Origin: Amphiscolops sp. MND2022
Taxonomy: Eukaryota
Direction: 5' to 3'
NCBI GenBank assembly: GCA_964187785.1
Contig: OZ076409.1
Span: forward strand, 53,012,001-53,076,000
DNA length: 64,000 nt
The translations under genes and the position numbers were made by a program. Shown one piece after another: positions 1 to 46,418 of the stretch (the stretch's first letter is position 1; every line of letters starts with the position of its first letter). The notes below the pieces were generated by a model. The model ran no database searches and was not told the DNA's origin. It saw only the letters and a program-made list of their open reading frames with translations.

Positions 1-1206
1 TGGTTGTGATTGCGATGTAAACACTCATGTAACTCCCTAAATTAATTAGTGCAATCAATATTAGACTATGTTGTTGCTACAAACACCGGTCTGGAAGACC
101 TATCCGGCTATGCCCACCAGTTAACATGTACAATCTGTGGCCATATCAGATAAAGATTAACATATGCAATAACATGTAATACTGTTGCTTACTAGCCAAT
201 TCTGTCTGTTAACGGGGCACGTGCCGACACAGGATTGTTAGCATTCCCCGAATATTAGCGGCTTGAGTAATTTATTTGATGTTATTTGATGCACTGCGTG
301 CCTTTCAAATGTTTACTAGTGTTGTCGAAACAAAAATTTGAATGGCCGCGTGGTTTTCCTGATAACATTTCAGCGGCACTTTGATGTTCATATAGCTGTG
401 TAAATCAGGTGCCTCCGGAATGTAGTCATCACATTTTTTAAGTATTTGTACTATGTATGTCACGCCCGAGGCAGTATATATAGGAGCTACTCCCTTGGGT
501 AGACACAATTTTGTTCTGCTCCTTAAAATCAGTTTGTAAAATAACCTTCTGTTACAAACCTCCAAACAAGATACTATTTCCTGGTGTTAAATAATTTATT
601 ATTTGACCAGGTTTATCTCAATGCCTACAACTAGAAAACAGAAGAAAGCGAGAAAGTCAAGAGGACTTGAAATGTTGTCAGATATCGAGAATTTAGATAT
701 TATGTAAGGTGAGAATCACTTCAATGCAAGGGAGAGAGAAAGTAGTTTAAATAGCAATTTGCCCAGGAGATCCAGAAGCTTTGCGAGCAATGAATCCGAA
801 AATGAAGATGGGGACATAGGTAGAAATCAGAGAAATGTTAACTCTAGAACAAATGCCGAATGTGACCGAAATTCAGTTACAGGCAACTCTAGTGCTGAGA
901 TGAACAGGTTGTCAAGTGAATTAAATTCTCGTATTTCACGAGAAATGGACGAGATGATGAATTCTGGGAGTGTCCAGATACAAAGGGCCATAAGTGATGC
1001 GATAAGTACGCAGGTGCTTCCACAAATCCAAAATGTAATTATGGCCGGATTAAGACACGGGACCAGAAAGGGATGGGACGTTCCGTCTGAGAGACCGGAA
1101 CTAAATTCCGAAGTTCAGCGAAATCTAAACGCAAAGAACAACTTGAGAAATGAACAGGATGAGAACCAGTTAAACAATGATTACCCTGATCTGAATGTTC
1201 ATGACA
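1..1206 (+). mobile_element. Diverged LTR (3' or solo, left end outside window) of a relative of the 2149-21328 Gypsy family, with a broken gag 5' segment
   Basis: ATG at 621 begins MPTTRKQKKARKSR as in gag at 3405; premature TAA near 705; ORF 759-1211 aligns to the Gag N-terminus (NRLSSELNSRISREMDEMMNS); TATA-like GTATATATAG near 474; similarity ends at ...CATGACA 1206 with no PBS after it. Confidence 0.85.
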
Positions 1207-2148: not shown

Positions 2149-3996
2149 TGTCGCAGGCTGCCGCCTGTGACGGCACGACAGTAACTACTTCGGCAGTTGG
2201 TCAAGAATATGTACCCGGAACCTTACCTATTTATTAAGAACTTACAATTGATATCAAACTTTCACGCCATTTTGTTATTTTGTGCATTATGATCATTGAT
2301 GACGTTCACTTTATATACAATTAGTCTGTTAAATCTAACAATTGGAAATTTCAATCGAGTTGATGGAGTTGTAAAGGCGCTAATTTAAAGCGATAGAAAA
2401 TACAATGAAACGAGCGACTGTAAGGCAGTATAGGAAACGAGTTCAAGTGACGTACGGCAATGTACCGGCAGCGTCACTTGAGCACGTTACCTTAACCAAT
2501 CATATCGCAGTATGCAATCTCGTTTGTTGATGCTATTTAATTAATGGCCGAGTAAGGCCAGTTGCCGCGCTTTTAATATTCTCTTTTGGTACACTGGTCA
2601 AATGGCCGGTTCCGTCCCATTAGTTCAAGACTGAAATAAGGTGATAATTTAACATGAAACAAGTCATGTTTGTTGAGTTTGTGTTTTCATAATAGCCAGA
2701 TCTCTGTTCATAACTGATGCTTCGTCTTAATACTCAACCTTTTGTTAGGCCCTTAAGGCCATATTTCATTAGTACTTGCCTATTAATTAGCCGGCTATTT
2801 CCGGCCATTGAAATTGTTACGTTCCTTTGAAAAGTGATGTAGTACATATATTTGGGGCTAATCGGTTAATCAACGCATACAATTATTAATATGACAATTG
2901 GCCGTATTAGGCCTAATAACATGATGTGCTTCACACTGTTGCAAAGCTAATTTTAGGTCACGTGGTGGCACGTGCCTGAAAGGAATGTGTGCAATGTTAT
3001 TTATATTCATGATGAGTACTAGTTCCTTTGATAGACGGAAATTTCATTTGATGCACTAGTAAATATTTTGATGCCGCCTTTGATGAATGAATAGTTGTGA
3101 TTGTAAAATGTTAGGAATTTTCCCAATCGGGACATCACCCTAAAATAGTTGCTTTGAAGTATTAATACCCGATGCCGTAATAATACTTGTCACATGACCC
3201 GTTGAGGACATAACCACATGATATTATCTTCATCAAAGAATCCGTGGAATGTAAGTGTCATCTTTCAGGAGTATATATAGTTACTTTCCTGCAAAGGGAC
3301 ACACAATTTCCATAACCTTGCTTTGATAAAGATCGATTTATTACAACGACGTTTGTCAGTTTTCCGGTTTTAATAATTGAATTATTCAACCCGGTTCAAT
3401 TTCAATGCCTACCACAAGGAAACAAAAGAAAGCGAGAAAATCAAGAGAGGCAGAAATGTTGTCAGATATTGAGAATTTAGACATAATGCTTGGAGGAAAT
3501 CATTACAATAGAAATGAAAGAAGTGATAGTCTAAATAGTAACCAGGCCAGGAGACCTGGTAGTCCTTTTGGCGACGAATTTGAAAATGAGGATGAAAATA
3601 GGTTATCTAACTCTGAAAACAATGGACCTAGTCCAAATGCCGAATTAGGCCAGAACTCAGTTAGAGGTAGTTCTAATGCTGAGATCAACAGATTGTCGAG
3701 TGAGTTGAATTCCCGTATATCTCGGGAGATGGATGAGATGATGAACAGCGTCAGTGTGCAGATTCAAAGAGCTATAAGTGAGGCAATTAGTAATCAAGTT
3801 CTTCCCCAGATTCAAAATGCCCTTATGGCCGATTCCGGACATATGACCAAAGAGAGATGGAACGTTCCGTCTGAGAGACCGGAAGGATATTCTGAAGTTC
3901 TGCGTAATTCAGACTCTAGAAACAATTCGAAGAGTAAGACACTTGGTGACCGTCAGAAGGACGGATTCACATTATCGGACACCCGTGCTTACGACA
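2149..3996 (+). repeat. 5' LTR (1848 bp)
   Basis: Near-identical to 19481-21328 (offset 17332); one mismatch noticed by eye (3231 C vs 20563 G); TG...CA ends. Confidence 0.97.
3271..3280 (+). promoter_or_regulatory. Probable LTR TATA box
   Basis: GTATATATAG about 130 bp upstream of the gag ATG; the same motif occurs at similar positions in related LTRs (~474, ~42928). Confidence 0.6.
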
Positions 3997-5126
3997 TGGT
4001 GACAGGAGCAAACGAATCTCCAATTGAAGTTCCTGAGTTTCTCACAGGACGAATGCCATCCACTAGTCATCTCAACAGATCCTGTGATGACCTTCCGCTG
4101 CTCGACACGACGATCCCAGCACAAGAACGACCCGCTCTGGCATCAGAACAAGACCCCATCAATAGGCTAGCAGATGTTTTAACTAGTATGCAGAACCGCC
4201 CAACGGCCCAACAACTCACTATCCGCCCAGTCAACTCCAACACAATGACATTCGACGGAAAAAGTGAGAAGTTCGAGCTGTTTGAGGATTTATTCCATAC
4301 GATGATCAAGATGCAGCCTGAGATGACCGAACAAATGAAAATCAATCACTTCCATTCCTTACTGCGAAAGAATGCACTCCAAACATTTAGAAACATCAGC
4401 AACGCCAATAGACAAACTCTTGAGGATGTACTTGTTATTTTCAGACGAAAGTACGTCAAACCTGAATCTCAGGCAACTGCAAAACACAAATGGCATCGCC
4501 TAGTCTTTGACCCTAACACGACCAAATTGCCAGACTTCCTTGAAGAGCTTAACCAAGGAGCAGAAAAAGCCTTTGGAGACAATGCCCAAAAAATGATCGA
4601 CAGTCTCCTATACGCAAAACTGCCACCAAAGCTCAAAAGATCAGTCAACATGGCTAGACTAGAGAATGGCTCTTACGATGAAATCGTCGCTCATCTGGAA
4701 AGAGAACTGGAACTGAATGCACTCGAGGAGTCTGATGACCTACCTATAGCGTCAATGACATCTTCGGTTGGCAAGACAAAAACTGTTCCTTCCAATGTAC
4801 AGATGAGTGACATAACGTGCAATTATTGCAAGGAAAAGGGCCATATGGTCAAGGATTGCGAGAAACTGAAGAAGAAAAAAGAAAAAGATGCCCAACAAGG
4901 CAAACAGACTCAGAAAAAGACGTACCCGGAGTGTGGCACTTGTGGTAAAAAGAACCACCCCGAAGAAAGATGTTGGCAAGGCGCTGGTGCACATCTCAAA
5001 CCCAAACGCACCAGACCAGATGACGCCAATGATGGTAAGCCCCATTCAAAGGCGCAGAAACCACAAAACAAATCAACATCACCAAACTCCCAATCCTCAT
5101 CCTCTAATGATGAGTCAAAAAACTAA
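3405..5126 (+). CDS. gag: Gag (573 aa) with two CCHC zinc knuckles; first ~197 codons lie within the LTR
   Basis: Capsid-like region (FDGKSEKFELFEDLF); knuckles CNYCKEKGHMVKDC and CGTCGKKNHPEERC; upstream of pol. Confidence 0.95.
   Translation: MPTTRKQKKARKSREAEMLSDIENLDIMLGGNHYNRNERSDSLNSNQARRPGSPFGDEFENEDENRLSNSENNGPSPNAELGQNSVRGSSNAEINRLSSELNSRISREMDEMMNSVSVQIQRAISEAISNQVLPQIQNALMADSGHMTKERWNVPSERPEGYSEVLRNSDSRNNSKSKTLGDRQKDGFTLSDTRAYDMVTGANESPIEVPEFLTGRMPSTSHLNRSCDDLPLLDTTIPAQERPALASEQDPINRLADVLTSMQNRPTAQQLTIRPVNSNTMTFDGKSEKFELFEDLFHTMIKMQPEMTEQMKINHFHSLLRKNALQTFRNISNANRQTLEDVLVIFRRKYVKPESQATAKHKWHRLVFDPNTTKLPDFLEELNQGAEKAFGDNAQKMIDSLLYAKLPPKLKRSVNMARLENGSYDEIVAHLERELELNALEESDDLPIASMTSSVGKTKTVPSNVQMSDITCNYCKEKGHMVKDCEKLKKKKEKDAQQGKQTQKKTYPECGTCGKKNHPEERCWQGAGAHLKPKRTRPDDANDGKPHSKAQKPQNKSTSPNSQSSSSNDESKN
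3997..4008 (+). promoter_or_regulatory. Primer-binding site TGGTGACAGGAG (tRNA-Leu-like)
   Basis: Directly abuts the LTR CA end; same 12-mer at 43162 (+) and at 58449 and its duplicate (-); one mismatch to the complement of the metazoan tRNA-Leu 3' end (TGGTGTCAGGAG). Confidence 0.85.
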
Positions 5127-8100
5127 CTTCGCCACGACTCCAATATAACCAATTAGTCTCTGTCCGACAATACATCAAATCGGACCCTCCAACTCAAAGC
5201 TTTCATAACTATCAGCAGCAACTGATGGGCTACCCTTCTGTTGTCTGGCAGCAACAGATGGAAAAAGCTACCATTATTACCTATAATAATACCCATTTGT
5301 TCCAAAAACCAATTCCTGTATGGGACCCTGATTACACATCTGCTTTCAATAGCCGATTCAGGCCCATTCCCTTGGTAGATGACTACAATCCTACCTACAT
5401 AGATCCTGACTATGGACGAGATCCCTATTGGGACAACGAGCTTTATAACCAGGATTTGCTGCAATTCCAATACGTTATTGATGATATAGAACTCTATAAC
5501 AGATCAGTCCATGACAATCCACCAATCACCCATAACAAGAAAACCAGAGCATTGATTGAAACATGGCAGATGAATGATGGTACAAGCCATCCGGTATTCC
5601 CAAACCCCTTGGGGACCGAAACCTCAGACAAACAAGAAGAAACAATACCACACTCACTACTTGATGAAAGTCAGTTCCAGAACATCCTCATCACCAGAGA
5701 AGGAGAACCAGACTGTATTCCTCTGTCCACCAACATAAACTTGAAATGCAAAAAACGCATGCTGTATTTCCCTATGGACTTTGGGGAACTGACCATAGAT
5801 GGACTTATTGACACGGGTGCCTTATCCAGTGCAATCCCTGAAATGGACCTCCGGAAAATCAGGCTCCTATCACCGCAATCAGTCATCCGGGAAGGTCCAC
5901 CTCCGAATTTCCAGATAATGGTCGCAAATGGGCAACTAGAGACTCCAAAGAGTACTATAGAGCTCAAATTTGAAGTTGGTGACATAGAATTCCATGAAAT
6001 TTTCATAGTAATGGAACACTTGACAGGACCAATTATAGGACTGATGTTCCTACAGAGAAACCATACAGTTTTGGACATGAGGCAAGGAATACTGAACTTT
6101 CCATTCTTTTCGATGCAGCTCAAAACAGCTGATCACAAATACTCGAATGTACTTGAACCAATTTTGAACCCTACCGAAATAACCATTCCGCCAAACGACA
6201 GAGTCCTAATTAGGACCAATTCCCTATTGTACCCTGAAAACACGGTCACAGGGATCTTACAACCGAGCGACCTTCTTCATGAAGAAGGAGACATCACATT
6301 CTGCCCAGCCCTGGTTACTTTGAACGATGGCAATATACAGATACCGGTGAATAATTTCACAGATCACCCTTACAAGCTCAAAAAGGGACTCCATATTGCC
6401 AGCTTCTCAGTCATGACGCCAGAGCAGATGAAATACGTCAAACCAATAGACCCAGCTTCAACCTGGCATTTGTTACAAAATGACCAAGAACAGGCAGCCC
6501 ATTACGTCAGTAGTCTCATCAAGACTAACAGGAATCCACAAAATACCGAAAACTATTGGTTCCCAACCCCAGAGAACCCAGGGAACCCAGAAGAACATAC
6601 ACCAATCCAAAAAAGGATACTCCGTGAATTACAAGCCCTACAGGACCTAGAATCACTCGATCCCACAAAGGATGAGGAATCTAAGGCAAAATTCCTAGAA
6701 AACTTTGACTGGAAAGACTCCACATTGACACCTGATGAAAAAGAGAAAATTGAACAATTACTAGTGGAGTTCCATGATATCTTTGCAAGACATAGATTCG
6801 ACATAGGCATGAATGAGGAATTCAAAGTGAAGTTGACACCCAAGGACGATTCCCCAGCCTACAGCCAAAGCCTCCCTGCGCCGATTAACCTGAAGGAAGA
6901 CATTTTAGTCGAATTAGCCATGCTTCACAAATATGGCATCATAACTACCCTACCGTTCTCGAAATACGCCAGTCCAATATTTGCACAAAAGAAACCGAAT
7001 GGGAAACTGAGACTTCTGGTTGACTTGAGAAAAATCAACAACCTAATCTCTGATGATTATATTAACAATAATCATCCAGTCAGTACCCTAGTCGATGCCG
7101 CCCAACACATGGCAGGCAAGAAACTCTTTTGCAAGTTAGACTGTTCACAGGCGTATCATTGCCTTCCCATGGCCGACCAACGTTCAATCGAAATGCTGGC
7201 CTTTAACTTTGCAAGCCGCACATTCGCCTACAGACGACTGGCACAAGGCCTTAGTAGGGCACTGTCCGCATTCTCCAGCTTTATGAGAGAGTACCTAGAC
7301 AAAGTCATAAAAGCGGACCAATGTGCACAGTATGTAGACGACATTGGCATCGCAGCCAATGACGCCGATCACCTTATTGCTAACCTGAGAGCAACTTTCA
7401 AATGCATCCAGGAGGCAGGCCTTAAATTGACAATGCACAAGTGCCATTTTGGTGCCACAGAAATCGATTTCCTTGGCAGGACAATAACCGCACAAGGCGT
7501 CAAGCCCCAACGGCAGAATGTTCAGAATTTCCTAGAAAAGACCAAATTTCCGAAGTCGAAAAAGGCTCTACAAAGATATTTGGGTTTCTTGAACTACTAC
7601 CGGAATTATGTCCCAAGACTGTCTGAACGCCTTGCTCCGTTCTACAGGATGCTCAAGAGTGACGAAAAAGTCCTAGTGTCCAAGGAACTAGTTCAACAAT
7701 TTGAGGAAATCAATCGAGCTCTGGACAAATGCTGCGACTTGGCCCTACAACAACCCATCCCGAACAAACAAATTGCCCTAATGACAGATGCAAGTTTTGG
7801 TGCTGCAGGATATGCAGTACTCATCGAAGATGACCCGAGTCAGAAATTCACGTCAATCCGCAAATCATATGCACCGGTCGCTTATGGTTCAAAAACCTTC
7901 ACCCCAGCCCAGATAAAGATGTCGATTTATGCAAAAGAATTTCTGGCGATCTACTTCGCATTTAAAGAATTTGGATATATCTTCTGGGGAGCGCCGAAAC
8001 CGGTCATAATCCTAACTGACAACAAAGCCGTAACAAGATTTTTCCAAACGAATATCGTACCCCCAGCCCTGTGGAATGCGTGTGACTATGTAATTCAGTT

Positions 8101-10331
8101 CAATTTTGTCATCGCGCACATCCCAGGAGCACAAAATACGGCAGCAGATTATTTATCTCGATTGGAAGCCGAACCGAAGGACAAATTAGTCATGAAAATC
8201 CGCGAAGACGTACAAACTCTGCCAATAGAAATAAACGTCCAATCAGCCGGAGTCTCACAGGAAGAGCAAATCTTCTACACAAACGACGATGATGAGACTG
8301 AAGAACAATATTGGGCGAGAAAAGAAGCAATCAGGAAAAATCCTGTAAATGAAGAACCTACTGTTACAATACAAACTCTCTATACCAACTTAGTCAAACA
8401 ACAACCTGAAATACAAGTCCGACTGAGGAAAACCAACCTGATAATTATTGAGCAATCCAAAGATACAGTATTGCAACAACTGAAGGCGAAGCTCCTTCAT
8501 GAAGAGTACTCAGAAAACATACTGCAACAGGATGCTCGATACAGACATTATGCTAATAATCTGGAAAGAATTGTCATCAAGGAAGACATCCTAACAAGGC
8601 AATATTTTGACGAAACCGGGAATATAAAATATCATCAAATTCTTCTCCCGCAACACTTGCTGCCAGAATTGCTTCAGTCCCTACACGGGACAGCCCACAA
8701 GCACCCAGGCATCTCAAAGATGCTGCAGGAGATCAGACAGAGATATTATTACCCTAACATGGCGAAACATGTCAAAAAGTGGGTAGAAGGGTGTGAACAA
8801 TGTGCGAAGGACAAACGAGTCCCAAACGCAACAATCACGCCTGAACTACTCAATTTGCCCGAATGGGACCTTGGACCTGAAGACGCCATGCAAATCGACT
8901 TATTGCCGAATCTTCCCCCAAGTGGAGGATACGAAAATGTTTTAACTGCAATTGATGTCTTCTCTCGATACTTGTTTGCTTATCCTCTTACAGACGCATC
9001 AGCGATCAATGTAGCTAAAGCAATCATTGATATTATGACGAAACATTCTTACCTACCGACGACGCTCATTACGGATAAAGGAACTGCCTTTACTTCCACG
9101 ATCATTGCGGAAATTACACAGATTTTAGGCATTACCCTAAAATGTGCAACGACGAAACACCCGCAAACCATCGGGAAATTAGAGCGAACGCATGCCTCAC
9201 TAAAAACGAACCTGAAAATGGCATGTGGGGAATATCGCCAACAATGGCATAAATATTTTGCCTTTAGCAGTTCTCAACCATAACACAAGTTATCATGCCA
9301 GTATCGGATGCGAACCCACAAGAGTGTTCCATGGGAGAATCCCATACAACATCTTGGACCACAAACTTGGAATGAATCCAAATGAGCAAATCCATCCGAC
9401 TACTGAATTCGCAGAAGAAATCCAGAACCGGACCAAACTCCTTATTGACAAAACTAAACAGAACATCATGCAGTCATATATCAAATATAAGGAGTATTAC
9501 GACCGAAAAGCAAAAGCCGCCCCACTCAAAGAGGGCGATTACTGTTTTGTATTACAGCCGAAAGCGGATCATCAAGGATCAAAAATTCCATTCAGGGATT
9601 ATCGTTGGGTTGGACCATTCATAGTCCAAAAGACCTTACCTAATGAGAATTACATTGTCCGAAGGCTTAATACAAATAAAACGCAGATATTGCATCGAAT
9701 TCGTCTCAAAAAGTTTGTGCCAAATCAACCACTTGAGGACAATTTCCGAGAACAGCGTCTACAGCCGGATGACGAAATAATCATTCCGCAAGACGACTTG
9801 TATGTAATAACGTGGGAAACAAACTTTGGCGAACAACTAGACACACGAGGCAGCGAGCCTATTCCGACCAGCTTGACGAATGACGAACAGCAGACTACGG
9901 CAGAACCGAATGCAAGTGACGCAAGCGAGAATGAAGTTGATTATGTAATCACGAGTGACGAATCAAATTTCACTGACCGCGCGTCGCATAGCCGGAATGA
10001 ACGATTAATTGATGACGTCACTAAAAGAAATAAAGCTACTGAAGCTATTAGAAACGACGAATTTGATTGGCCAAATCCGGCCGTTTCCCCAAAAACCCAA
10101 GAAAAATCTGTGCCGAAAACGGCTGAAGGACTAAAAGACGATGCAAATTTTCCAGAAAGAAATTTGATGAATGAAAAAGATGCAGAAAATTCTCCAAATA
10201 GGGGGGATGATATTATCGTGCCCGAAATATCACAAAATGAAGAAGGAAATGAAAATCTGAGTCCTAGAGCTGGGAAATATAATCTCAGGCCTAATCCTAC
10301 CCCTAACTACTCAGAAGACTTTAGATACTAA
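5114..10331 (+). CDS. pol: Pol polyprotein (protease, dUTPase-like insert, RT, RNase H, integrase with GPY/F-type motif); one frameshift near 9256-9259
   Basis: LIDTGA protease, YVDD RT, TDAS RNase H, HHCC and D-D-E integrase in ORF 5225-9283 (frame open from 5114); integrase tail (WVGPF) continues in ORF 9225-10331. Confidence 0.95.
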
Positions 10332-10604: not shown

Positions 10605-13600
10605 TTAGTTTTTAGAAGAACTGGGGACACACTCATCCACGACAGAAGAGGCCCTAGATCGGGAAGCGCTCCGACTCATCCTCCTGCGCTTGCTAGCGCT
10701 GGGGGCTTTCAGAGCACATTCATCGGCGACACTATCGTCGCCCCTGGTTCCTGCCTCAGTGGAAACTGCCTTAGGCACAGAGAGAATGGACTTGTAGGTG
10801 GACAGCAGCGATTTGTAAATTTTGGAGCGGCCAAAATCGTCAACGTACGTCCAAGGGTCGTAATCGGCTGAGAAGGCAGATCGTCCAAAGGAGGAAGCGA
10901 ATAAAGAAAACTTGGACAGATTAGCTTCATTACAACAGAAAGCGGCTGACCCAGGAACTGAGCTTATATAACTCTGGACAGGCAGAATAACATCGGTAAA
11001 TCTGCCTCGGTGACCCGCCGTACTCACACTCCCGGCAGTTACTACTGGATAAGTAGGGGTAACAGAGGTTGCACACAGACAGCAAAGCTTAAACAAATAA
11101 AGAAGCCGCTCCCGTGACTGAAGGAAGTCCAAGGTCATCATGAAATCAATCAAGTCTCGAGAGACACTGGTGACGTCAAAGGTAGGGGGGTAATTCCCTC
11201 GAAGATGATCGAGAAGAGCCAAATAATCATCCCGACAAGCTGACTCATCGGCCTCGAGGACCCAAGAGCGGAGGAGGAAAGTGCTGTATAACAACTCAAA
11301 GTGCTTAAGAGCAATGTCGATTGGCCTCTTGAGCATGACAGTTGGATCAAAAGCAGCCAGACCTTTGATGATGTTGGAGCTAAGACCGGGTTCATGGAGG
11401 ACCTCTCCCAATAAGTACTTCAGGTAGTTTTGCCCGTCTTGGACAAACTTCGACTTGATTGCCTCCGCTGTCTTCTGGATTACGGAACGCTCAGTCTTTT
11501 GACCAGAATGGACCCCTTCTGACCTCTGCTTACTGGCTGTTGCGACCTTGTTGGTGATCTTGAGACGAGCCAGAAACTCCGCCTCGGGGATGAAAACTCC
11601 GTCTGAAGTACGGAAATTGAGGAGCTGGAACCATGCATTTTCCAATGGGACCGTATCAGCGGTGTAGATCCGGAAACAGAGTTGATGTATATAACGAGAG
11701 ACCTCACCACACAGGAAGAAGGACCCATCTCGTCGCTGTTGCAGGTTGACCGCAAAACTGGAAGTATCTACAACAAAGGCGGACCTTATATATGAGTTAA
11801 GGACACGTCCTAGAGGAGGTTAAGCAGTGATACTAACAGTCACTGACGAGCTTGCAAAAGAATTCCAACTTGATGGTGAAGAACTCATCACAGATGAGGG
11901 TCCACTCAAAGCTCTGTGCCTGTAATGGGAAAATATCAGTTAGCCTGAATTATGAGGACATTTTGAAAGGTACCGAAATTTAACGTTGGGACCTAAGGGG
12001 AAGGAAAACCAATCTCTTAGTGGACTTACTCTCGTTCGAACCCCCTGTCCTTGTTGTCGGGGTGAGTGCTCCGTTAGGTAGCGCACAACTGATTTCCAGG
12101 CGATGATGAGTTCCTGACATAGGACAGGAAGAGTGGGGAGATCCAATTTGCATGAAGCTATAGCCTAAATAACGTATTGTATTAGTGTCCGTAAGGGAAA
12201 TAAGCAGGGTCTCTTATCTGTCCAAGGTACAACATTCCTACCATAATCGGAAAGTCATTACCTGAGATAAGGTGGGGCTCTGCAGTACCCAATCCTCAGA
12301 GAGAGATCCACCCAGGGTGATGACTAAGGCATGTAGGACCGAAAAGAAGTCGATATGCCCGAAGACACTATAACTGGGTTTGTGCATCAGTCTGGAGAGG
12401 GACAAGGTCTCAAACCGGAAGGACGCCTGCACTGCTCTTGAGAAGAGTGGGGAATGGTCGATTGTCCTGACAAAGTCAACGGGGCAGCCAGAACAAGCCA
12501 CCACATCGCAATTGGTGGAGACTGCGGATAGGAGCCGTGAGAGAGACCCTAGTTCTCCTGACAATTCCGAAGAGGGTAGCTCGCTGCGACAGACGAGGAC
12601 GCGACACAATTCAGTCCCCTTCCAGAACCGTAGAGACATGAAGCGATTGACATTGCTGTCTTCAAATTCTATGGCAAAGCACTGTTCTGCAGCCACGCAC
12701 TCCGCTATTTCGCTCATAGCACAATTGAACAGGTGCTGGAAGATTGTCTGGAAAACAGACGAATGTTTCAAAAATGCAGAATGGATTGAGTCAACCTACA
12801 AGTAGGGAAAATAAAAACTTACCGTCATACGTTCTTCCCCCCAGTCGAAGTCACAGAGAGTAGCTTGGTAGTCTGTGAAGGAACTAAGGCGTGCCCATAG
12901 ATTGCGTAGCATCGCAAAATCGCCTTGGTCCTTGAGGAAGTCAATGACGATGCCCAATTGGGTCCTGGACCTGGACTCTGGGGTGACTATGGCAGTGGTC
13001 CGTCCCTGGATAAAATCGTCATAAAAGGGGAATCGTTCCCCGATGTCCACTAGCTCTGAATGGATGAAACGTGGGAGTTCTCTGGCTAACTCCCGGACTG
13101 ACTAAACTGTCTTTTGGTGAATTGTCAGTCAATCTGTAGCATTGAAAAGAGGCAAAATTTGAACAAGTTATGTACTGTCAACACTGTTTCTTTAGTCTTC
13201 TTAACGGAAACATGGCTTTCAAATGACGTAGTGAATTCTGAGGTTTTTCTGGGCAATTCTTTCACTGTTATCTCTCGCTCTGACCGTTCTTTTGGCTCTC
13301 ATGGTGGTGTTTTGATTGGTGCCTCAAATGATGTCAACCTGAATATTATGGATGTTTCTATTGTCGACTACGAATTCTCTGTAGCCTGTGTTGTTGTTGA
13401 CGTGAAACTCATATGCTTCGTTCTTATTTATTTCCCACCTTCTACATCTGAATACCGCATAGACTGCAAGGTTTTGACATCATGTCTACATTCTTATAAT
13501 ACGAAATTTGCCACAATGAGTTATCAATGTGGTTTTGGTGAAGATTATATCTTATTCATTCTTGGCGATTTCAATTTTCCTGAAATCGATTGGATTAATC

Positions 13601-16600
13601 TAACATCATCAAATACTAATGAGCAAAAGTTTATTGAAACCTCTGACCTGTTAGCAGTTTCGCAGTTAATCGATACCCCGACTCATAAGTTGGGAAATAT
13701 TCTTGACCTGATTCTAACAAATGACGACACTAGCTTTTTCAATGTTCACCAACAGTTGTTTTCTGATCATTTTCCAATATTATTCTATACGTCTTGCTGC
13801 CTGCCTAAACCAGTTTGTACTGAATCGTTCTCCAAATCTTCTTTTGACCAATTCCTTTTCAACAGTAATCTTGAAACCTTATTCAATTTCATAACACTTG
13901 ATAACTTGTCTAATCCCTGTTATCCTTACGAATGGTATGAACTTTTAACCCAATCTATTGGAAGCTCTCTGCAGCTCAAGCGTTCCAAAAGACTTCATTT
14001 TCCAGCTTTCTACTCATCACATACAATCCATATTCTCAATCTTGTTAGAACTAACCAAACAAAATTGAACAAAGGTTGGTCGCTCCACAATTCAATCAAG
14101 CATATTGAGTTGACACGTGCCCTCTCTGAATCTATTGAACTTGACAAACACATTTACATTGAGCAATTCAGCTTAAAGTCGCCAACAGACTGTTTCAAAC
14201 TTCTGCGTTCACTAGGTTTTAGTCAATCATATCCTTCTGTTATGTACTTTGAAGATCAAGTTTTACATACTGAAAGTGAGAAAGCAACCTGTTTTAATAA
14301 CTACTTCGGATCAGTATTTGGTCCCAAAACCATCAACCCACCTACTCTTTTCATGTCTTCAGATCACAAAATTTGTCTTGATGATGTTTCTATTCGGGCG
14401 GAAACTGTTACTTTCATGCTTAGTCAATGCAATGATTCGTCATCCCTTGGTCCAGATCTTATTCCCTCCTTCATTTTATATCGATGTTCTCAGATCCTCA
14501 CTCCCATAGTTACTGAACTCTTCAACTGGGTTTTACACAATAGAACTTGGCCTGCTATGTGGAAGTTGTCTTTTGTTACTCCTCTTCACAAAGATGGTCC
14601 ACGAACGCAGATAGAAAACTATCGACCAATAAGTATTTTGCCTAAATTGTCTCTTATTTTGGAACGTATACTTTTCAATTTTATTTATCCAAAAGTCCGA
14701 AATTCGATTACTAAAAACCAGCACGGCTTCATGACAAAACGAAGTACTGTAACGCAGATGATATTATATCTTGATAAAGTCTACCGTAATATTGATTCCA
14801 ACGTACCGTCATTAGCTGCATATTTCGACGTCAGAAAAGCTTTCGACTCAGTGCCTCATCACTTACTTCTGCAAAAACTTGTGAAATTCGGGTTCTGTCC
14901 AGATTTTATTCGCTTGTTCTCTTCTTACCTGGATGAACGCTCCCAGTGTGTAAAACTTAATAATACCTTCTCCAGTAAAATAACCGTTTCTTCTGGTGTA
15001 CCGCAAGGCAGTGTACTGGGTCCATTACTGTTTATCCTGTTTGTAAACGATATGCCGAACTTAATAGTTTATGGTACTCCTTTCTTGTTTGCTGATGATA
15101 TGAAGGTGTTGTTCGATGTTGATCCCCGCCAAATTCAAAGTGATATTGACAACTTGTATCTTTGGAGTATTGCCAACGGTCTGATTTTTCACCCTTCAAA
15201 GTGCAAAATTTTACCTTTTGGTTCCTCGTCTTTCGATGAGTCATTCATTCTTGGCGACAATGATCTTCCGGTGGTTGACAATTAAAAAAATTTGGGCTTC
15301 CTGATTACTCACAATCTAAGCTGGAACAGCCACATTGACCATAAATTAGCCACTGCTCGAAAAATATTTGGGTTTCTTCGAAGAAATGTTCCATTCAATT
15401 GTTCTTTTGTCAGAAAGAAACTGCTTTATCAAAGTCTTATTTTATCTGTTCTTCTTTACGGTTCCCCTGTGTGGTCTCCCTCCTCCACGTATATTGCAAG
15501 ACTAGAAAAATTCCAATATAAAGTTTTGAAATGGATGTTTTCATCAGAGGACTATGTTTCAGGTCTGCTCCAGCTACAGTTTCTTCCAATCTGCTACCAA
15601 CTCATCAAAGCTGACGTGATTCTACTGTGGAAAATTTACAATAGTGATGTTGATTGTGAATACTGTCCATCTAATGTTGCCTCTTGTACGCGTGCATCTT
15701 CGGCCAATCAATTTATTATCCCTGATACAAAAAAACTTGGCTCAAACGCTAACTTCTTCGTACGAGCCACACGTTCTGTAAACTTTCTCTTAAGTCAAAA
15801 TGTTATATCTTTAACCATGTCTCTATCATCTTTAAAATTATCTCTTGACTGTTATTTCAGTATGCTAACAAAGAATTTTAACATCGATAATTCTTGTTGC
15901 TTCTACCTCAAATGTATGTGCACTTGTTGTAGGTCCTAATTCACCTGATTTATGTTTTGTTCGCTATAATTATTTCTTTCTTTGTTAAATAATTTCCGTA
16001 ATTGGAATTGAGTCTTTTACTACTACTACTACTACTACTAACTCAATCTTGTTCAGAAGCCTTCCGTTTCGTCCTCTTACACGATGCTGGACTTGCTTGG
16101 TGACGGGATCAACACTCTTTAGATGCTCATATCGCCACCTCTGGTCTTTTCTTAGATGCCTCTCTGAACGGTGGTGCCTTAGGATTTCCATGGTGCCTTT
16201 GCTGCGGATGGAAAAGTTTCTTTTGCAAATGTGACACCAAACCATCAGAGGATTGTGGATGGGGTCCGCGGGTCCAGAAATGAAGGACCTTGTCCAACCA
16301 ATTTTTGCAAAGAATTCTTCACGCATGGGGACTCCTCTGTGGGTGGTGCGCTTGATGCGTTTCTGCCTCTGCGTCTTGGTAGTTGTTCTGGATTTGCGTT
16401 CCAGAACCTCATCGCGGACTTCCAGCAACGTGGCATCTTGGCTGCTGAAGCCTGATTGGCCAGGCTCTTCTTGTTGGGACTGACTTCCGGACTGCTGCGT
16501 GGGATTTGGTCCTAGATCCGTAGTGAGATTCTTCTTGAATGTCTCAGTGATCAGAGCCATCTCTCCGGAACTATCACTGTCTTCGAACCCAGCGGATGTA

Positions 16601-17733
16601 TCAGTGCCTTCCGCTCCAGACGAGGAACCAGCTAAGGGACAGGCCCCAGTGAGGTTATCAGTTTCATCGTCACTTGATTCACTGCATCCAAAGGGAGTGG
16701 GGACTCGAACTCTAGTCTGGAAGTGACTGGTCCTTGACGGGGCCACGGTCGGGGTGCCCTTTACTGCGTCCAACACCATTCGCTCCATCGTGGTATAAGA
16801 CATTCGGATAGTCTCGTCAGTAAGGGACCTTAAGAGGTGGTACATCTGTGGCTCAGTAAAAGCCACAGTTGGATGTCCGAGGGGTAGAGAGAATGGCTGT
16901 GCATCGTCAAAGTAGGTTTTGAGGATGGCGCGAGTCCTACCTGATAATTCAGGAAGCCTGTCATCTTGCTGTCTCCGGGGCACGCCGTCTTGGTTACTGA
17001 GCACCGAATGTGAGGGATTGATGCCAGTCTCACTCTCTGCTTCAGCTCCCGACTCAATCTCCAGTGGGTTGGTTCCGTACAAAGGAGGGCATCCTGCTAA
17101 GCTGCTTTCATCTGCAGTTTGCTCACTCCCACTGAAATCCGTAAGATAGAGGACTTTGGGCTTCACAACGGGTAGAGCAGGGACTTCGTACACTGAGGAT
17201 TCATTATCATCTCCAGATTGCCCCCTGGTTAAAGTTTCATCATTGGGAGGTGACGCTACAACGGCCACAAGTTCTGGGAGCTGGGAATTGGACGAGGTGG
17301 CTACTCTGAGTGCAGACTCCAATGCAGACAAGTTACACTGGGTCAACACTTCCTCATCAGGGAGCGTTGGGGTACTTGTCCTGACTAGTTCCTGAACTAA
17401 TGTTTCAGTCCTCTCCTGAGTTCGGTCATCCGCACCAGTAGAAGCGACAGTGGCAGTATCATCTGGGGAGCGAGCAATTGCCGTCTGAGCTTTCTCCATC
17501 ATGTCTACCATCTCATCGGCGAAAGTAGTCACATCTACCTCGCTATCCGTGCTCCCTTTGGTCTCTTGGGATTGCGTCAGAACAGAGGTATGAGGAGCTG
17601 ACACTACAGTTTCAACAGGGTTGTCTAGACTTGGGTTGGCTGGGACTTGGGTCTCATCACTTGTCTGGTTTTCTAAACAGAAGGAGATGAAATTTGGCGG
17701 TATGCTTCCTTGATAGAAATCCATTTGCCGCAT
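10605..17733 (-). CDS. Antisense five-exon accessory gene (~1274 aa): low-complexity N-terminus, BED-like zinc finger, degenerate hAT-transposase-like body; interrupted by a LINE in this copy
   Basis: Exons 17733-16045 + 13092-12823 (joined after LINE removal), 12747-12262, 12164-12030, 11919-11838, 11767-10605; four GT-AG introns of 75, 97, 110 and 70 bp; the joined 3825 nt form one open frame; motif WCHICKRNFSIRSKGTMEILRHHRSERH. Confidence 0.85.
13093..16044 (+). mobile_element. 5'-truncated non-LTR retrotransposon (CR1/L2-group-like LINE) nested in the LTR element
   Basis: 7-bp TSD CTAACTC (13086-13092, 16038-16044); (TAC)n 3' tail; APE endonuclease plus RT ORF. Confidence 0.93.
13102..15939 (+). 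pseudogene. LINE ORF2 (APE endonuclease + reverse transcriptase) with one in-frame stop at 15283-15285
   Basis: LTETWL, GDFNFP, SDH endonuclease motifs; NYRPISIL, GVPQGSVLGP, FADD RT motifs; ORFs 13114-15285 and 15292-15939 share a frame; terminal CMCTCC. Confidence 0.92.
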
Positions 17734-18786
17734 TAGAAAACTTCCGGAAGTGTTCGAAATTCTGAACGGACGTGATCAACACGTGTTCACCAAGTAGTGG
17801 AAACAGGAAGCAATTAGTGAACAAACTTAGCTCTGATCAAGTTAAACTAGTTCAAAAATATGAAAACCCAGACCAACCTGCTTTTGAAGACATTCTGTTG
17901 TGGAAGAATTCGTTCTAAGGGATTCTATCCAAATTCGGATGAAGAGTATGGGGAAGACGGCCTAACACGGCTGATGAAAGAGGGGCTCGGAGGGCTCCGT
18001 AAAGGGAAGAAGAAGCCAGCAACGAAGTTGAAGACCCAGATAAGGAAAGCGGAATAGCAAAGACTGAAGGATACAAATGTAAACAATTTAAATGGTAATG
18101 GAACTAAATGCGTGTTAACAATTGAAAGGAGATAAAAGTTGGAGGTCGTGGCTGAAGAAATTACCAGACTAATATTATTTAATTATCTACATATTTATTC
18201 GGTACATGGAGTCTGCCAGCGAAATGTACAAAGAACTTTGCTATTTACAGCTTAACTAGTTAGAGGCCGGTTATGGCCAGTTGACCTATCTTGTTTTGTC
18301 GTTTTGTCTAGTTACCCTAATTACCTTAGCTGAATCTTCGCCATTTTAGTTATTCAAATTATTATTTTTCGCCATCTTTATTATTCATTTTTCAAATTTA
18401 TCGAAGCTCAAATTTGATTGGCTGAAGCCATTTTAGTAGGCTTTACCTGACGCGTGCCGTTAATTGCTATCAAGCTTGATGTTAATTACCCTCTTGAAGT
18501 GGAGTTATTTGTTGTTGTTAACTTAACACCTCTCTGATTACCTACTTGAGAGGGTGGGCTCGGGGGGCAGCGTTCCGATATTCAAAGGGCGAACCGCCGC
18601 TGAGAAACCCCATTCAGAAAAGTTTACGACGGATCAGACCGATTAACCAAAGAATCTGCCGCTGAAACGAAACCCCGGGAAAACGGCCCGAGTCGGCCCG
18701 AGGAGAGTTTTATAAATTCATTCAACTTTGAATCTCACTTGCAGCTAGTTGCCTTCATAAACTTCAAAATAGCTAAAAAATTCATC

Positions 18787-19569
18787 ATGGATAAATACGC
18801 AAAATCTGGAAAACTCTTCGAGATGGCTGAACTGGACTCAGACTCATCAGGCGATTCAGTTATTTACATAAGCAGCGATGAGGAAACCTCAGTTGATTTG
18901 GACTCAGACTGGTCGACGGACACGGACGAAATGATCAGAAGGGTGGAGAGGCAGGTAGTGTCCAGCCCCATTCTAATTGCCGGACGTGTCATGACGACTA
19001 GCAGTATGGAGGAAGAAATGGTCACAGGACCAAGCACCAGACAGCCGGGGCAAGATGTGACTCCCAAGTTAGATACAAAATACTTTGATCACGAGAGGTG
19101 CTATGCCCCGTCAAAGAGAGCGGAGAAATCACGAATTGAGCTCTGCAAGACGCTGCTACCAGTGCTAGAATCACCGATGTCTCCACCAATCCATGAGAGG
19201 GGGCCAAGCCAGGACACTCCTCTGGTCCAGCCCGCAGTAAGTGATTTTCATGTGTCTTATCACGTGCAGAACTCGGTGCCCTACCAAAATGTCAGCGAGA
19301 CCCAATATACTGGGTGTATGGTTTGCGGCCGCTCTGTAGATGCAATCAAGAGTGAGAGAGTCAGATGGTATATGGAACGATCCACCCCAAGGAACGAGGC
19401 CGAGCACATCACGAAGTTGAGGAAAGAAGCCTACGAGAATGGGCTTAATGCGGGATGCTTCCTTTTCATAACACCCGCAGTGTCGCAGGCTGCCGCCTGT
19501 GACGGCACGACAGTAACTACTTCGGCAGTTGGTCAAGAATATGTACCCGGAACCTTACCTATTTATTAA
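18787..19569 (+). CDS. Accessory ORF3 of the LTR element (260 aa from first ATG), function unknown; last 89 nt inside the 3' LTR
   Basis: Long uninterrupted ORF with an acidic Ser/Asp-rich N-terminus and a CMVC motif; no signal peptide or transmembrane segment evident. Confidence 0.7.
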   Translation: MDKYAKSGKLFEMAELDSDSSGDSVIYISSDEETSVDLDSDWSTDTDEMIRRVERQVVSSPILIAGRVMTTSSMEEEMVTGPSTRQPGQDVTPKLDTKYFDHERCYAPSKRAEKSRIELCKTLLPVLESPMSPPIHERGPSQDTPLVQPAVSDFHVSYHVQNSVPYQNVSETQYTGCMVCGRSVDAIKSERVRWYMERSTPRNEAEHITKLRKEAYENGLNAGCFLFITPAVSQAAACDGTTVTTSAVGQEYVPGTLPIY

Positions 19570-21328
19570 GAACTTACAATTGATATCAAACTTTCACGCC
19601 ATTTTGTTATTTTGTGCATTATGATCATTGATGACGTTCACTTTATATACAATTAGTCTGTTAAATCTAACAATTGGAAATTTCAATCGAGTTGATGGAG
19701 TTGTAAAGGCGCTAATTTAAAGCGATAGAAAATACAATGAAACGAGCGACTGTAAGGCAGTATAGGAAACGAGTTCAAGTGACGTACGGCAATGTACCGG
19801 CAGCGTCACTTGAGCACGTTACCTTAACCAATCATATCGCAGTATGCAATCTCGTTTGTTGATGCTATTTAATTAATGGCCGAGTAAGGCCAGTTGCCGC
19901 GCTTTTAATATTCTCTTTTGGTACACTGGTCAAATGGCCGGTTCCGTCCCATTAGTTCAAGACTGAAATAAGGTGATAATTTAACATGAAACAAGTCATG
20001 TTTGTTGAGTTTGTGTTTTCATAATAGCCAGATCTCTGTTCATAACTGATGCTTCGTCTTAATACTCAACCTTTTGTTAGGCCCTTAAGGCCATATTTCA
20101 TTAGTACTTGCCTATTAATTAGCCGGCTATTTCCGGCCATTGAAATTGTTACGTTCCTTTGAAAAGTGATGTAGTACATATATTTGGGGCTAATCGGTTA
20201 ATCAACGCATACAATTATTAATATGACAATTGGCCGTATTAGGCCTAATAACATGATGTGCTTCACACTGTTGCAAAGCTAATTTTAGGTCACGTGGTGG
20301 CACGTGCCTGAAAGGAATGTGTGCAATGTTATTTATATTCATGATGAGTACTAGTTCCTTTGATAGACGGAAATTTCATTTGATGCACTAGTAAATATTT
20401 TGATGCCGCCTTTGATGAATGAATAGTTGTGATTGTAAAATGTTAGGAATTTTCCCAATCGGGACATCACCCTAAAATAGTTGCTTTGAAGTATTAATAC
20501 CCGATGCCGTAATAATACTTGTCACATGACCCGTTGAGGACATAACCACATGATATTATCTTGATCAAAGAATCCGTGGAATGTAAGTGTCATCTTTCAG
20601 GAGTATATATAGTTACTTTCCTGCAAAGGGACACACAATTTCCATAACCTTGCTTTGATAAAGATCGATTTATTACAACGACGTTTGTCAGTTTTCCGGT
20701 TTTAATAATTGAATTATTCAACCCGGTTCAATTTCAATGCCTACCACAAGGAAACAAAAGAAAGCGAGAAAATCAAGAGAGGCAGAAATGTTGTCAGATA
20801 TTGAGAATTTAGACATAATGCTTGGAGGAAATCATTACAATAGAAATGAAAGAAGTGATAGTCTAAATAGTAACCAGGCCAGGAGACCTGGTAGTCCTTT
20901 TGGCGACGAATTTGAAAATGAGGATGAAAATAGGTTATCTAACTCTGAAAACAATGGACCTAGTCCAAATGCCGAATTAGGCCAGAACTCAGTTAGAGGT
21001 AGTTCTAATGCTGAGATCAACAGATTGTCGAGTGAGTTGAATTCCCGTATATCTCGGGAGATGGATGAGATGATGAACAGCGTCAGTGTGCAGATTCAAA
21101 GAGCTATAAGTGAGGCAATTAGTAATCAAGTTCTTCCCCAGATTCAAAATGCCCTTATGGCCGATTCCGGACATATGACCAAAGAGAGATGGAACGTTCC
21201 GTCTGAGAGACCGGAAGGATATTCTGAAGTTCTGCGTAATTCAGACTCTAGAAACAATTCGAAGAGTAAGACACTTGGTGACCGTCAGAAGGACGGATTC
21301 ACATTATCGGACACCCGTGCTTACGACA
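19481..21328 (+). repeat. 3' LTR (1848 bp), with a second copy of the gag 5' segment (ORF 20737-21402 runs into the flank)
   Basis: Direct repeat of 2149-3996, followed by TSD AAAGG. Confidence 0.97.
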
Positions 21329-44700: not shown

Positions 44701-46418
44701 AAAAACATTCCGAGATAATTTCACACATTTCCGGACATGCGTAGTGATGACTGTAGAATTTTTATCATTTTCCTGCAAAATACAACCGAGACATATCATT
44801 GGAATTACTTGTCGCAAAAAGAACGAAACTACGTCAAAATTTGGGACTAAAGAAAACAAAAACAATTTGATAACCAATTAATTGACGGTACAATACTTCC
44901 CTAACATCATCTCTTTCATTTTATCAAGCCCCCGAGAACCATTCGTCCTATGAGAGTGGCCCTGTCACAGTCCGCGCCCGGACTGGATTGAATTAAAAGC
45001 AAACTAAAACTAATATAGGTCACCGCTTCGCCAATACGATTGAATTTGCGTCGCGACTATGCTACGTCACAGCTATGGCAGCTAGTCAGAAATTCATTCC
45101 AAAATGTGACGTCAGCATCTCGTCTAACTTGGCAACTAGCTAGAAAGTATTCCAAATCAGACGACGATATGACGTCACAGCTATGGCAGCTAGCTAATTT
45201 TCATTCCAAATTTACGTCCACTATATCGGCGGACTAAGTCTAATACTAATACGTACGTCCACGTTACGTCGCAAATCCATCAAAATAGCTAATTTAATCC
45301 ATCCAAAACACCAAATTTACGTCCACTCTACGTCCCAAATTTATAAAATTAGGCGTTTTAGTCTGTATTAAACTTAAAAGAAGCTTTATTTTACTACGGT
45401 AAAACTAATCGAAGCTAGAATATGAATCAACGTCAACACTACGTCGCAATTTAACTAACCAAACCAAATTTTGAATCTACGTCAGTATTGCGTCGACTAA
45501 GATTCAATTCGAACGGAATATGGTATTTAAGCCAGGATTTTTCAGATTTACTTAAAATAACAGTGCTTTAATACGATTTACCTTGAAAAGTCATAGTTTA
45601 TATTCAATTTGTGTTAATAAAGTGAAGTCCAAGCTGGATTTTAAATGTACGTTTTGACTACCTAATTTCATAAGTTCATATGCTGTTTGACGATGTCACG
45701 TCGTCTTTTATTGTTGCTCAAAGGTGTTGCTCCTAACTTTAATCAGAAAAATATTTATCAATTGTTGAAATATATAATTGTTTAGCCTCATGTAAATCAG
45801 TCACTCTCTTAGCATCACCAAATTGCCTAAATCAAGATAATTAGTCATAATTTTCTTCAAGTGGGAATTCAAAATCAGGTATTAGTTGTTCACGTCAGCG
45901 TCATCTCCGCGTCGGTTTCTTACGAACCAAAGCAGAAAAACGGGGAAGTATTTCAGGTTTGACAGACTGAAGTAATATCTACTTCCTGCTTGGGAGGAAA
46001 CAAAAGGACGCCAGAATGAAATGATATGATCATGATTGATGTCTAATACTAGATTAGAATTGCCGTGTCTTAAAAATTGACGAAATGGTGACGAAGATCA
46101 AAGTTTTGCCGCAAAATTACAGGAAGTGACTAATATCTCGATGGAAATTAAAGTACGCGAGTATGAACAGATGATGCTAGGAGGGTATATATAGCTTGTA
46201 CCTGTAAACTTATGAATTCAATTTCTGATTCAATCTGCTGTCTTGTATCAAATTCTACTTTGTTTTTTTAAAACAATTACTCTGCAAACTTCAATTCAAA
46301 AGTGATAAATCCGAAAATCTTTTCATCAAGAGAAGCTGGAAAAGAAGAATGTCTTTCAAAAAAGCAACAAAAATAATCAGAAATGTACAGAAAAACGACC
46401 CTAACAGGAGTCGTAACA
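41706..46418 (+). mobile_element. Non-autonomous LTR retroelement (LARD/TRIM-like), 1456-bp LTRs
   Basis: LTRs 41706-43161 and 44963-46418 with TGTCAC...GTAACA ends; TSD CTAAG (41701-41705, 46419-46423); PBS TGGTGACAGGAG at 43162; 1.8-kb interior with only a short RT relic (~43300-43430). Confidence 0.95.
43854..44053 (+). repeat. 54-bp tandem repeat (~3.7 copies) inside the non-autonomous element
   Basis: Units start at 43854, 43908, 43962, 44016; each has GGGTT-ATAAC-A(A/G)CCC. Confidence 0.9.

Follow-up and report, generated by a model that had tools for sequence, protein, structure and literature searches.

A Ty3/Gypsy element of a probable acoel flatworm with a gag frame that begins inside the LTR and is read through the primer-binding site

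Element A, located at 2149-21328 of the window (the whole stretch of DNA analysed, 64,000 nt long), is a young Ty3/Gypsy element of a large family in a probable acoel flatworm. The first-pass annotation had placed the start of its gag about 590 bp inside the LTR, in a frame running through the primer-binding site (PBS). The question raised by this locus is whether the LTR codes for a part of Gag, and whether one or two Gag proteins are made. The element has direct LTRs with TG...CA ends and a 5-bp target-site duplication (TSD) at 2144-2148 and 21329-21333, outside the full 1848-bp repeats, as in Ty3/Gypsy elements. Its features are:

2149..3996, plus strand: 5' LTR, 1848 bp, TG...CA ends, one mismatch to 19481-21328
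3272..3308, plus strand: candidate core promoter, TATA box at 3272 and CAATT initiator-like motif at 3304
3305..3404, plus strand: leader of 100 nt, putatively R and the start of U5; no ATG in 3273-3404
3405..3996, plus strand: LTR-encoded Gag N-terminus, residues 1-197, with basic start, disordered stretch, helix 85-142, and linker
3996..3998, plus strand: junction ATG (Met198), formed by the final base of the LTR with PBS bases 1 and 2
3997..4008, plus strand: PBS-like 12-mer with zero spacer, read as protein; identical at 4/4 junctions in the window
3999..5126, plus strand: remaining gag, with linker, two-lobed capsid (about residues 271-444), two Cys/His knuckles, and an A-AAA-AAC slippery site at the end
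5114..10331, plus strand: pol (protease, RT, RNase H, integrase), in the -1 frame relative to gag
10605..17775, minus strand: antisense frame pieces with a zinc-finger-like motif and a weak hAT-like lead
18787..19569, plus strand: ORF3, 260 aa, entering the 3' LTR by 89 nt
19481..21328, plus strand: 3' LTR with promoter motif, ATG at 20737, and 197 codons as in the 5' LTR

In this copy, the pol frame is broken within the integrase near 9216-9283, and a plus-strand LINE at about 13090-16040 interrupts the antisense frame pieces. Pfam gave no match for Gag residues 1-197, for ORF3, or for the antisense frames.

The gag ATG at 3405 is 592 nt inside the 5' LTR and opens a 573-codon frame with the stop at 5124-5126. 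The LTR ends at 3996 and the PBS follows at 3997, and the earlier placement is borne out, as is the in-frame ATG annotated at the junction (3996-3998), which reads D197-M198-V-T-G. The element A lineage does not have the canonical layout of non-coding R/U5 and a PBS in the untranslated leader; its PBS lies within the gag ORF, a Ty1-type layout. The primer is probably tRNA-Leu(UAG/AAG), as 10 of the 12 PBS bases are those of its 3' end tabulated from other animals (PMC13524379 supplement); the exact 12-mer is absent from seven supplements of that paper, and no host tRNA was found in the 64-kb window. With this PBS, reading across the junction meets a stop (TGA) in one frame and is open in the other two, so that a read-through element has an approximately even prior chance of an in-frame ATG.

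Four other copies with this junction or LTR end are present in the window:

1..1206, plus strand: A0, terminal part of a related LTR, either solo or 3', with TATA at 475, ATG at 621, and one in-frame stop
41706..46418, plus strand: element B, non-autonomous, with 1456-bp LTRs, 5-bp TSD, and a decayed RT fragment
58001..58822, minus strand: C1, truncated gag copy with promoter motif at 58811, junction ATG at 58450, and the first half of the capsid
62294..63114, minus strand: C2, truncated gag copy and duplicate of C1, with promoter motif at 63103 and junction ATG at 62743

A0 ends after His-Asp at 1206, with no PBS next to it. The codon-level comparison proposed earlier, of 621-1206 with 3405-3996, gave a positive result: differences by codon position over 180 codons were 38/44/80 (binomial p 1.8e-5), and dN/dS was 0.17 with a bootstrap upper bound of 0.28. 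This substitution pattern shows that constraint acts at the protein level on the 197 codons borne by the LTR. The in-frame MVTG had also been reported at 43161 and 58450, both on the minus strand; the two junctions are confirmed, but 43161 is on the plus strand and only 58450 on the minus. The junction at 62743, also minus, comes in addition. Element B has TATA at 42929, and its first ATG at 43092 is in frame with the junction ATG. Its frame is short, as the first ATG is 23 codons inside the LTR and the stop at 43217 is 18 codons past the junction. C1 and C2 have no paired LTR within the window, and their LTR ends are placed by inference.

The same start and junction are found in database homologs, which supports the suggestion of a lineage-wide design. 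Among the best 120 of 2667 homologs, 110 have an MPTTRK-like start motif, and nine are called from the next Met instead. Of the 72 database matches whose start precedes profile position 120, 30 run the full length, 18 stop within 180-219, and no other 20-residue bin holds more than four ends; by these alignments, the similarity of database frames drops at the LTR end. The MVTG junction is found again in Gags of as little as about 40% identity, and xVTG stands ahead of the capsid in 22/149 representatives. Residue -1 is D, H, N, or Y (NAC codons) in 22/22 of them, compared to 23% in the background, because the LTR ends in ACA, and residue +4 is compatible with the 12th PBS base in 21/22; these 22 junctions are related sequences and not independent trials, and the distant relatives are known as proteins only, without LTR DNA. 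H-G-D-R, which the second open frame would give at the PBS, is absent among 311 proteins, so the MVTG frame is common by descent and its recurrences are not independent coincidences. The Gag N-termini, 114-223 residues long and partly unrelated, are joined to one capsid. A metagenome scan with the Gag alignment returned 16 loci, every one a short zinc-knuckle match. The 35 viral-contig matches of a 15-base junction pattern were rejected as chance, as none had a tblastn match to gag, pol, or the extra ORFs.

Two Gag isoforms had been suggested as well. By this alternative, a 376-residue Gag of capsid plus knuckles would also be made from the junction ATG on a separate RNA, arising by an internal U5 start or splicing, in the manner of Ty1 p22 from Ty1i RNA or as a short structural Gag. 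The entire capsid and both knuckles do follow Met198, which is present in 119 of the best 120 of the 2667 homologs and is in strong context in the element A family, and Ty1 has a second Gag product made from an internally started RNA (PMC5408680). However, conservation of Met198 is wholly explained by the DNA ends. The ATG arises because the terminal CA of the LTR meets TGG, which pairs with the CCA end of the tRNA, and the nucleotides encoding M-V-T-G are dictated by the integrase end (CA) and the PBS, which accounts for their conservation. The -3 base varies between families and is a pyrimidine in 7/22 junctions. Sixteen ATGs, three of them in strong context, lie between 3405 and the junction ATG and exclude simple leaky scanning, an argument also made for Ty1, so that a second isoform would need its own transcript; yet no second TATA box occurs in 3405-3996. 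Two isoforms are thus not borne out and are considered unlikely, and the junction ATG is best read, from the sequence, as a by-product of CA next to TGG, with Met198 internal and no regular second start.

The TATA at 3272 is the only TATAWAW in the LTR of element A. CAATT at +31..34 accompanies 7 of the 84 TATA-like sites in 64 kb, and all seven are in LTR ends of the lineage, in sense orientation. The CAATT motif was defined after viewing these LTRs, and the independent test is its recurrence in B and C, with p of about 0.003 by our estimate from the background. The motifs suggest a transcription start near 3305, about 33 nt past the TATA, with a counterpart predicted at about 42962 in B. The gag ATG is the next ATG after them in A0, A, and B, and the one at 3405 has a weak Kozak context; in C1 and C2, the ATG nearest downstream of the motif is in another frame. 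The coding U5 and long strong-stop DNA (about 690 nt) proposed earlier are supported insofar as the conserved core-promoter motif marks the start. Genomic RNA might instead start further downstream and give a short strong-stop DNA, the LTR codons then being in U3 and translated from a longer RNA of an upstream promoter. The start near 3305 is deduced from motifs, and the poly(A) site, hence R, has only a weak candidate, GATAAA at 3325 with cleavage near 3345, as neither AATAAA nor ATTAAA occurs in the LTR. This arrangement needs two promoters, though, whereas one motif is seen, and in A0, A, and B that motif precedes a leader free of ATGs and then the gag ATG; we regard the arrangement as very improbable. 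Chance read-through is countered by third-position bias over 197 open codons and by a start and junction recurring in homologs. A boundary artefact, with a shorter LTR extended by duplication or misassembly and an ordinary gag only apparently in the LTR, would fit a copy otherwise damaged in pol and by the nested LINE, but is almost certainly wrong given the TG...CA ends, the TSD around the full repeats, a PBS that adjoins 3996, and the shared end point of the independent LTR A0 and of many database frames at this codon.

The LTR-encoded part of Gag is predicted to hold a long helix, and the whole capsid fold is encoded downstream of the junction. The model of full-length Gag was poor (mean pLDDT 40), and only helix 85-142 (pLDDT 77-88) was used from it; the capsid core was refolded with a deeper alignment to pLDDT 81. 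A trimer model of helix 90-143 scored 0.77 versus 0.01 for the best control (contact agreement at least 72%, pLDDT at least 81), a mark reached in calibration by 21/30 solved one-chain pairs and 0/23 single chains, and in eukaryotes by 17/29 pairs and 0/30 single chains, three copies being outside this calibration. The heptad score exceeds shuffles in four or five of nine N-termini, that of the element A family not among them (51/150 shuffles as high). By these models, the helix probably oligomerises Gag ahead of the capsid. In VIA-align, the capsid matched dArc1 (Z 10.0, rmsd 8.9, 156 aligned), PNMA2 (Z 9.3, 7.9, 163), and Ty3 CA-NTD (Z 7.9, 2.9, 71), and ranks 1-35 were all retroelement capsids or domesticated forms. 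Foldseek gave no capsid match at E <= 0.001 (best PNMA2, 6e-3), and zf-CCHC in Gag, at E 0.003, was below the cut-off. By structure and sequence, Gag has the two-lobed retroelement capsid and Cys/His knuckle expected of Ty3/Gypsy. Gag-Pol would be made by -1 frameshift, judging from the frame and the A-AAA-AAC site, with a weak hairpin only (z -2.0) folded after it.

The pol domains are in the Ty3/Gypsy order of protease, RT, RNase H, and integrase (Pfam 221-315, 626-791, 860-981, and 1179-1350). Ty3 Gag-Pol is the best PDB sequence match (E 6.6e-41), which is a similarity ranking and not a tree; the element homologs returned were all unnamed ENA records. Membership in Ty1/copia (Pseudoviridae) was rejected, as the integrase follows RT. 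ORF3 has 220 homologs, with the boundary-crossing residues kept in about 100-110/120, and crosses the position where a polypurine tract would sit. No such tract directly precedes the 3' LTR, the nearest purine run of at least 9 ending about 50 nt upstream, and in element B no run of this length occurs in 44500-44970, the region checked. The LTR of element A is coding at both ends.

ORFs overlapping the 3' LTR are known as HIV nef, MMTV sag, and in plant centromeric CRM elements, and ORF3 likewise crosses the plus-strand priming region into U3. Those systems keep the polypurine tract and a non-coding U5, whereas element A shows no tract and has coding sequence at either end of its LTR. Like yeast Ty3, element A has PR-RT-RNase H-IN order, an Arc/PNMA2/Ty3-like capsid, a CCHC knuckle, and overlapping gag/pol frames. 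It differs in the extra ORF into the 3' LTR, in having no adjoining purine tract, and in its coding U5 and PBS, the 5' PBS segment of Ty3 adjoining the 5' UTR outside GAG. The premise that gag normally starts downstream of the PBS stands with an exception, since in Ty1 the PBS is inside the GAG ORF (PMC4974528). Ty1 gag thus also begins in an LTR-derived leader, but its PBS occupies nt 94-104 of the RNA, with fewer than 94 nt involved, compared with about 690 nt predicted for element A and 197 codons with a folded helix in the LTR. The superfamily differs too, and the Ty1 primer is initiator Met rather than the probable tRNA-Leu. A PBS in gag is thus known from Ty1, but not on this scale or in a Gypsy setting as far as was searched; no Gypsy precedent or acoel element of this layout was found in print by title and abstract, in a search run outside Repbase/GyDB and most subscription papers.

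Overall, we favour, with a probability of about 0.8, a Ty3/Gypsy lineage in which U5 of the LTR is gag coding sequence, with one 573-residue Gag and an internal Met198. Pol II would start about 33 nt after the TATA, near 3305, and ribosomes would scan the 100-nt ATG-free leader, begin at 3405, and make the single Gag, with Gag-Pol by frameshift. Residues 1-197, coded by the LTR, would give the basic N-terminus, disordered stretch, and long helix, the last with a presumed oligomerising role. The primer tRNA would bind within the ORF, so a translated RNA could not hold it, and priming would come after exit from translation, as in Ty1. The strong-stop DNA then produced by reverse transcription would be about 690 nt long and consist mostly of gag.

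Each cycle duplicates the LTR, so every 3' and solo LTR carries in its sequence the candidate promoter, the ATG, and a stop-less Gag N-terminal frame; in the 3' LTR of element A, the 197-codon frame continues into flanking DNA to a stop at 21400-21402. Many such LTRs might be gene cassettes, transcribed and translated into a Gag N-terminal domain that has a self-associating helix and reads into flanking DNA. Capsid-less fragments might co-assemble with full Gag and limit the spread of their own family, with control rising with solo-LTR number, and the LTRs might give a steady supply of chimeric proteins, and plus-strand DNA may be primed without a classical polypurine tract. Taken jointly, this is a speculative and rather improbable set. 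Element-encoded partial Gag, p22/p18, restrains its own family in Ty1 (PMC5408680); there p22 is the C-terminal half from an internal RNA, while the hypothetical candidate here is the N-terminal third from 3' or solo LTRs.

The finding means that an LTR is able to carry a whole protein domain, with a third of gag in the repeat and a second gene overlapping its other end. It bears on the limit of strong-stop DNA length and on the ordering of translation and primer binding on one RNA. A fast-changing LTR could swap the Gag N-terminal module between families, and annotation seeking gag only between LTRs would truncate such proteins at Met198. In one acoel, Gypsy elements account for 28% of the genome (PMC6451197), so many transcripts and peptides of these animals could come, unnoticed so far, from solo LTRs that combine a promoter with an open gag start.

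In element A, a variant of Ty3/Gypsy, the first third of Gag (residues 1-197) is encoded within the LTR, and the arrangement is real, conserved and lineage-wide. The features annotated in and around it are as follows:

2149-3996 and 19481-21328 (+): LTRs of element A, 1848 bp each, TG...CA ends, differing by one base
10605-17775 (-): long antisense frame pieces inside element A, with a zinc-finger-like motif
about 13090-16040 (+): LINE with endonuclease, RT and TAC-repeat tail, within element A, between LTRs that have a single mismatch
24107-28783 (+): second, decayed Gypsy-like element, a remote relative of element A (RT/RNase H about 23% identical)
37900-38940: tandemly repeated sequence, unit length about 177 bp
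43851-44075: within element B, a non-autonomous element, a 54-bp unit repeated three to four times in tandem
51098-51928 (-): frame of the lifeguard / Bax inhibitor-1 family, free of interruptions; the host gene itself is at 51101-51928
53255-64000: nested tandem duplications spaced about 1.2, 2.9 and 4.3 kb, carrying both truncated gag copies (C copies)

A 5-bp duplication flanks the LTRs of element A. As the first-pass annotation had read it, gag opens inside the LTR, at ATG 3405, and runs through the PBS; the frame has 573 codons, 592 nt of it inside the LTR, and stops at 5126. The pol gene follows in the -1 frame at A-AAA-AAC, which we take, from the general form of such sites, to be a slippery site. 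Its protease, RT, RNase H and integrase domains (Pfam) stand in Ty3/Gypsy order, with Ty3 Gag-Pol as the nearest solved relative, and element A does not belong to Ty1/copia. The pol frame of this copy is interrupted within the integrase, and the LINE is inserted in the antisense frame, with a candidate 7-base duplication around it at 13086 and 16038. For the antisense pieces, which may be cargo or a nested insert, Atlas offered a weak lead to a hAT-like transposase (score 0.90 at low recognition). The family is large and young: 2667 Gag homologs were recognized at E <= 0.001 among 8000 scored candidates, and the three homolog clusters looked up had 281, 89, and 71 members. Lifeguard proteins of two named acoels share 74-75% identity with the host gene, and those of other named animals about 60% or less, which makes an acoel flatworm the probable host.

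The LTR segment is a genuine coding sequence. The codon-level comparison with the related LTR end at 621-1206, proposed in the first-pass annotation, revealed constraint, with 38, 44, and 80 differences at codon positions 1, 2, and 3 (180 gap-free codons; p 1.8e-5). Bootstrapping put the upper bound of dN/dS, estimated at 0.17, at 0.28; dS is near saturation and the lower bound is thus uninformative. Four other frames of the same comparison gave 0.98-1.35, and the antiparallel frame, which shares third positions, gave 0.34 and contains stops. Among the best 120 of the 2667 homologs, Gag starts at an MPTTRK-like motif in 110, at the next Met in 9, and further in for one; column conservation there is highest in the capsid (0.95-0.99), followed by residues 81-140 (0.78-0.85) and the disordered parts (about 0.5-0.6).

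A PBS-like 12-mer stands directly after the LTR with zero spacer, and the last A of the LTR with TG of the PBS forms the in-frame Met198, in D-M-V-T-G. The junction recurs at 43161 (plus), 58450 (minus), and 62743 (minus); recurrence at the first two had been noted before, but on the minus strand for both, which is right for 58450 only. In element B (41706-46418), the first ATG is 23 codons into the LTR and the stop is 18 codons past the junction at 43161. The copies at 58450 and 62743 are truncated and without a paired LTR within the window.

Database proteins carry the same boundary. In a set of 191, the match to the profile begins ahead of position 120 in 72, of which 30 are full length and 18 stop at 180-219 (any other 20-residue bin holds at most four); the latter are frames of 3' or solo LTRs continuing into flanking DNA. 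An H/Y-D-like end is present in 16 of 17 frames stopping at 185-205. The next residue is compatible with an A-starting codon in 13 of these 16, one of which goes on with MVTG, and in two of the three misfits a suitable site lies a few residues before. Ahead of the capsid, xVTG was found in 22 of 149 representatives (50% clustering), always preceded by D, H, N, or Y (background 23%), as expected of an LTR ending in ACA; in 21 of 22, the following residue agrees with the 12th PBS base. Identity to the Gag of element A is as low as about 40-45% in some of them, and their N-termini have 114-223 residues. N-termini of representatives P0167, P0171, and P0176 resemble those of the element A family; those of P0188, P0208, P0220, P0260, and the C copy had no BLAST similarity to them or to each other. 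The first 15 residues include 4-8 basic ones in seven scored database N-termini and in element A Gag. The LTR end is fixed at one codon across the lineage and the LTR boundary is evident, in agreement with the lineage-wide design suggested earlier; as the junction-bearing sequences are related, and known as proteins only, they represent one inherited design and not many independent events. Distant Gags P0171, P0185, P0208, and P0295 have tandem degenerate H/D-M-V-x-G repeats, as if LTR end and PBS were duplicated in frame.

A short Gag isoform from the junction ATG, the second of two proposed in the first-pass annotation, is possible and would contain the whole capsid, but it is unsupported. 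With zero spacer, CA followed by TGG necessarily reads ATG. Across the PBS of element A, one frame is stopped and two are open, and the other open frame was absent in 311 proteins searched. Met198 is kept in 119 of the best 120 of 2667 homologs, but the neighbouring residues, set by the same nucleotides, are kept as well. Seven of 22 junctions have a pyrimidine at -3. From 3405 to 3996 there are 16 intervening ATGs, of which seven are in frame and three have a strong context by Kozak rules. In the comparable situation of Ty1, PMC5408680 argues that scanning to the internal AUG is precluded and that p22 requires its own RNA.

Transcription of element A probably starts near 3305, as suggested by motifs. 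The LTRs of element A and of A0 (the related LTR end, 1-1206) have one TATAWAW box each, aligned and conserved unlike the remaining U3. In A0, the two LTRs of A, the two of B, and the two C copies, CAATT follows 31-34 nt past the box; of the 84 TATA-like sites that the 64-kb window has on its two strands, no others than these seven show such spacing. As the motif was picked after inspecting these LTRs, it has test value only through turning up again in the LTRs of B and C, which are unrelated. The reading as a promoter follows general rules of TATA/initiator spacing. The first ATG past CAATT belongs to the gag frame in A0 (114-nt leader), A (100 nt), and B (129 nt) and is out of frame in both C copies. 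From the motif position, R+U5 would measure about 690 nt in element A, 200 nt in element B, and 330 nt in the C copies, and the strong-stop DNA of element A would take its length from the same start. Neither poly(A) signal, AATAAA or ATTAAA, is present in the A LTR.

Coding sequence also crosses the other LTR boundary. ORF3 (18787-19569, +) encodes 260 residues with a CxxC motif, belongs to no known family, has 220 homologs, and extends 89 nt into the 3' LTR; about 100-110 of 120 homologs retain the residues that span the boundary. Neither element A nor element B has a polypurine tract next to its 3' LTR. The sequence around the start of the 3' LTR of element B is found a second time inside that element, about 420 bp upstream (44520-44565, +); this copy may mark a second site of plus-strand priming or be left over from an earlier LTR end.

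ORFs that overlap the 3' LTR are also known from HIV (nef), MMTV (sag), and plant centromeric CRM elements. In titles and abstracts, with subscription journals and repeat databases outside the coverage, no Gypsy element with a long coding U5 and no acoel LTR elements were found. According to PMC4974528, the Ty1 PBS lies in GAG (nt 94-104 of the RNA) and the 5' PBS segment of Ty3 adjoins the 5' UTR. Element A resembles Ty1 in reading through the PBS, and its layout is thus known in kind.

The LTR-encoded part of Gag has no Pfam match. AlphaFold2 gave a helix at 85-142 (pLDDT 77-88) as the sole confident feature, the rest of the model being poor, and the simple heptad score of this helix in the element A family was not above shuffles. 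Three copies of residues 78-150 were modelled as an in-register bundle (contact agreement of 72% or more, pLDDT of 81 or more) with a score of 0.77 (best control 0.01). In the calibration, 21 of 30 solved one-chain pairs and none of 23 single chains reached the score mark, the figures for eukaryotes being 17 of 29 and 0 of 30; the three-copy case is outside this calibration. The trimer model supports self-binding of the helix, short of demonstration. The capsid fold, at about residues 271-444, is entirely past the junction. The LTR may thus supply an N-terminal oligomerisation and targeting module before a complete capsid.
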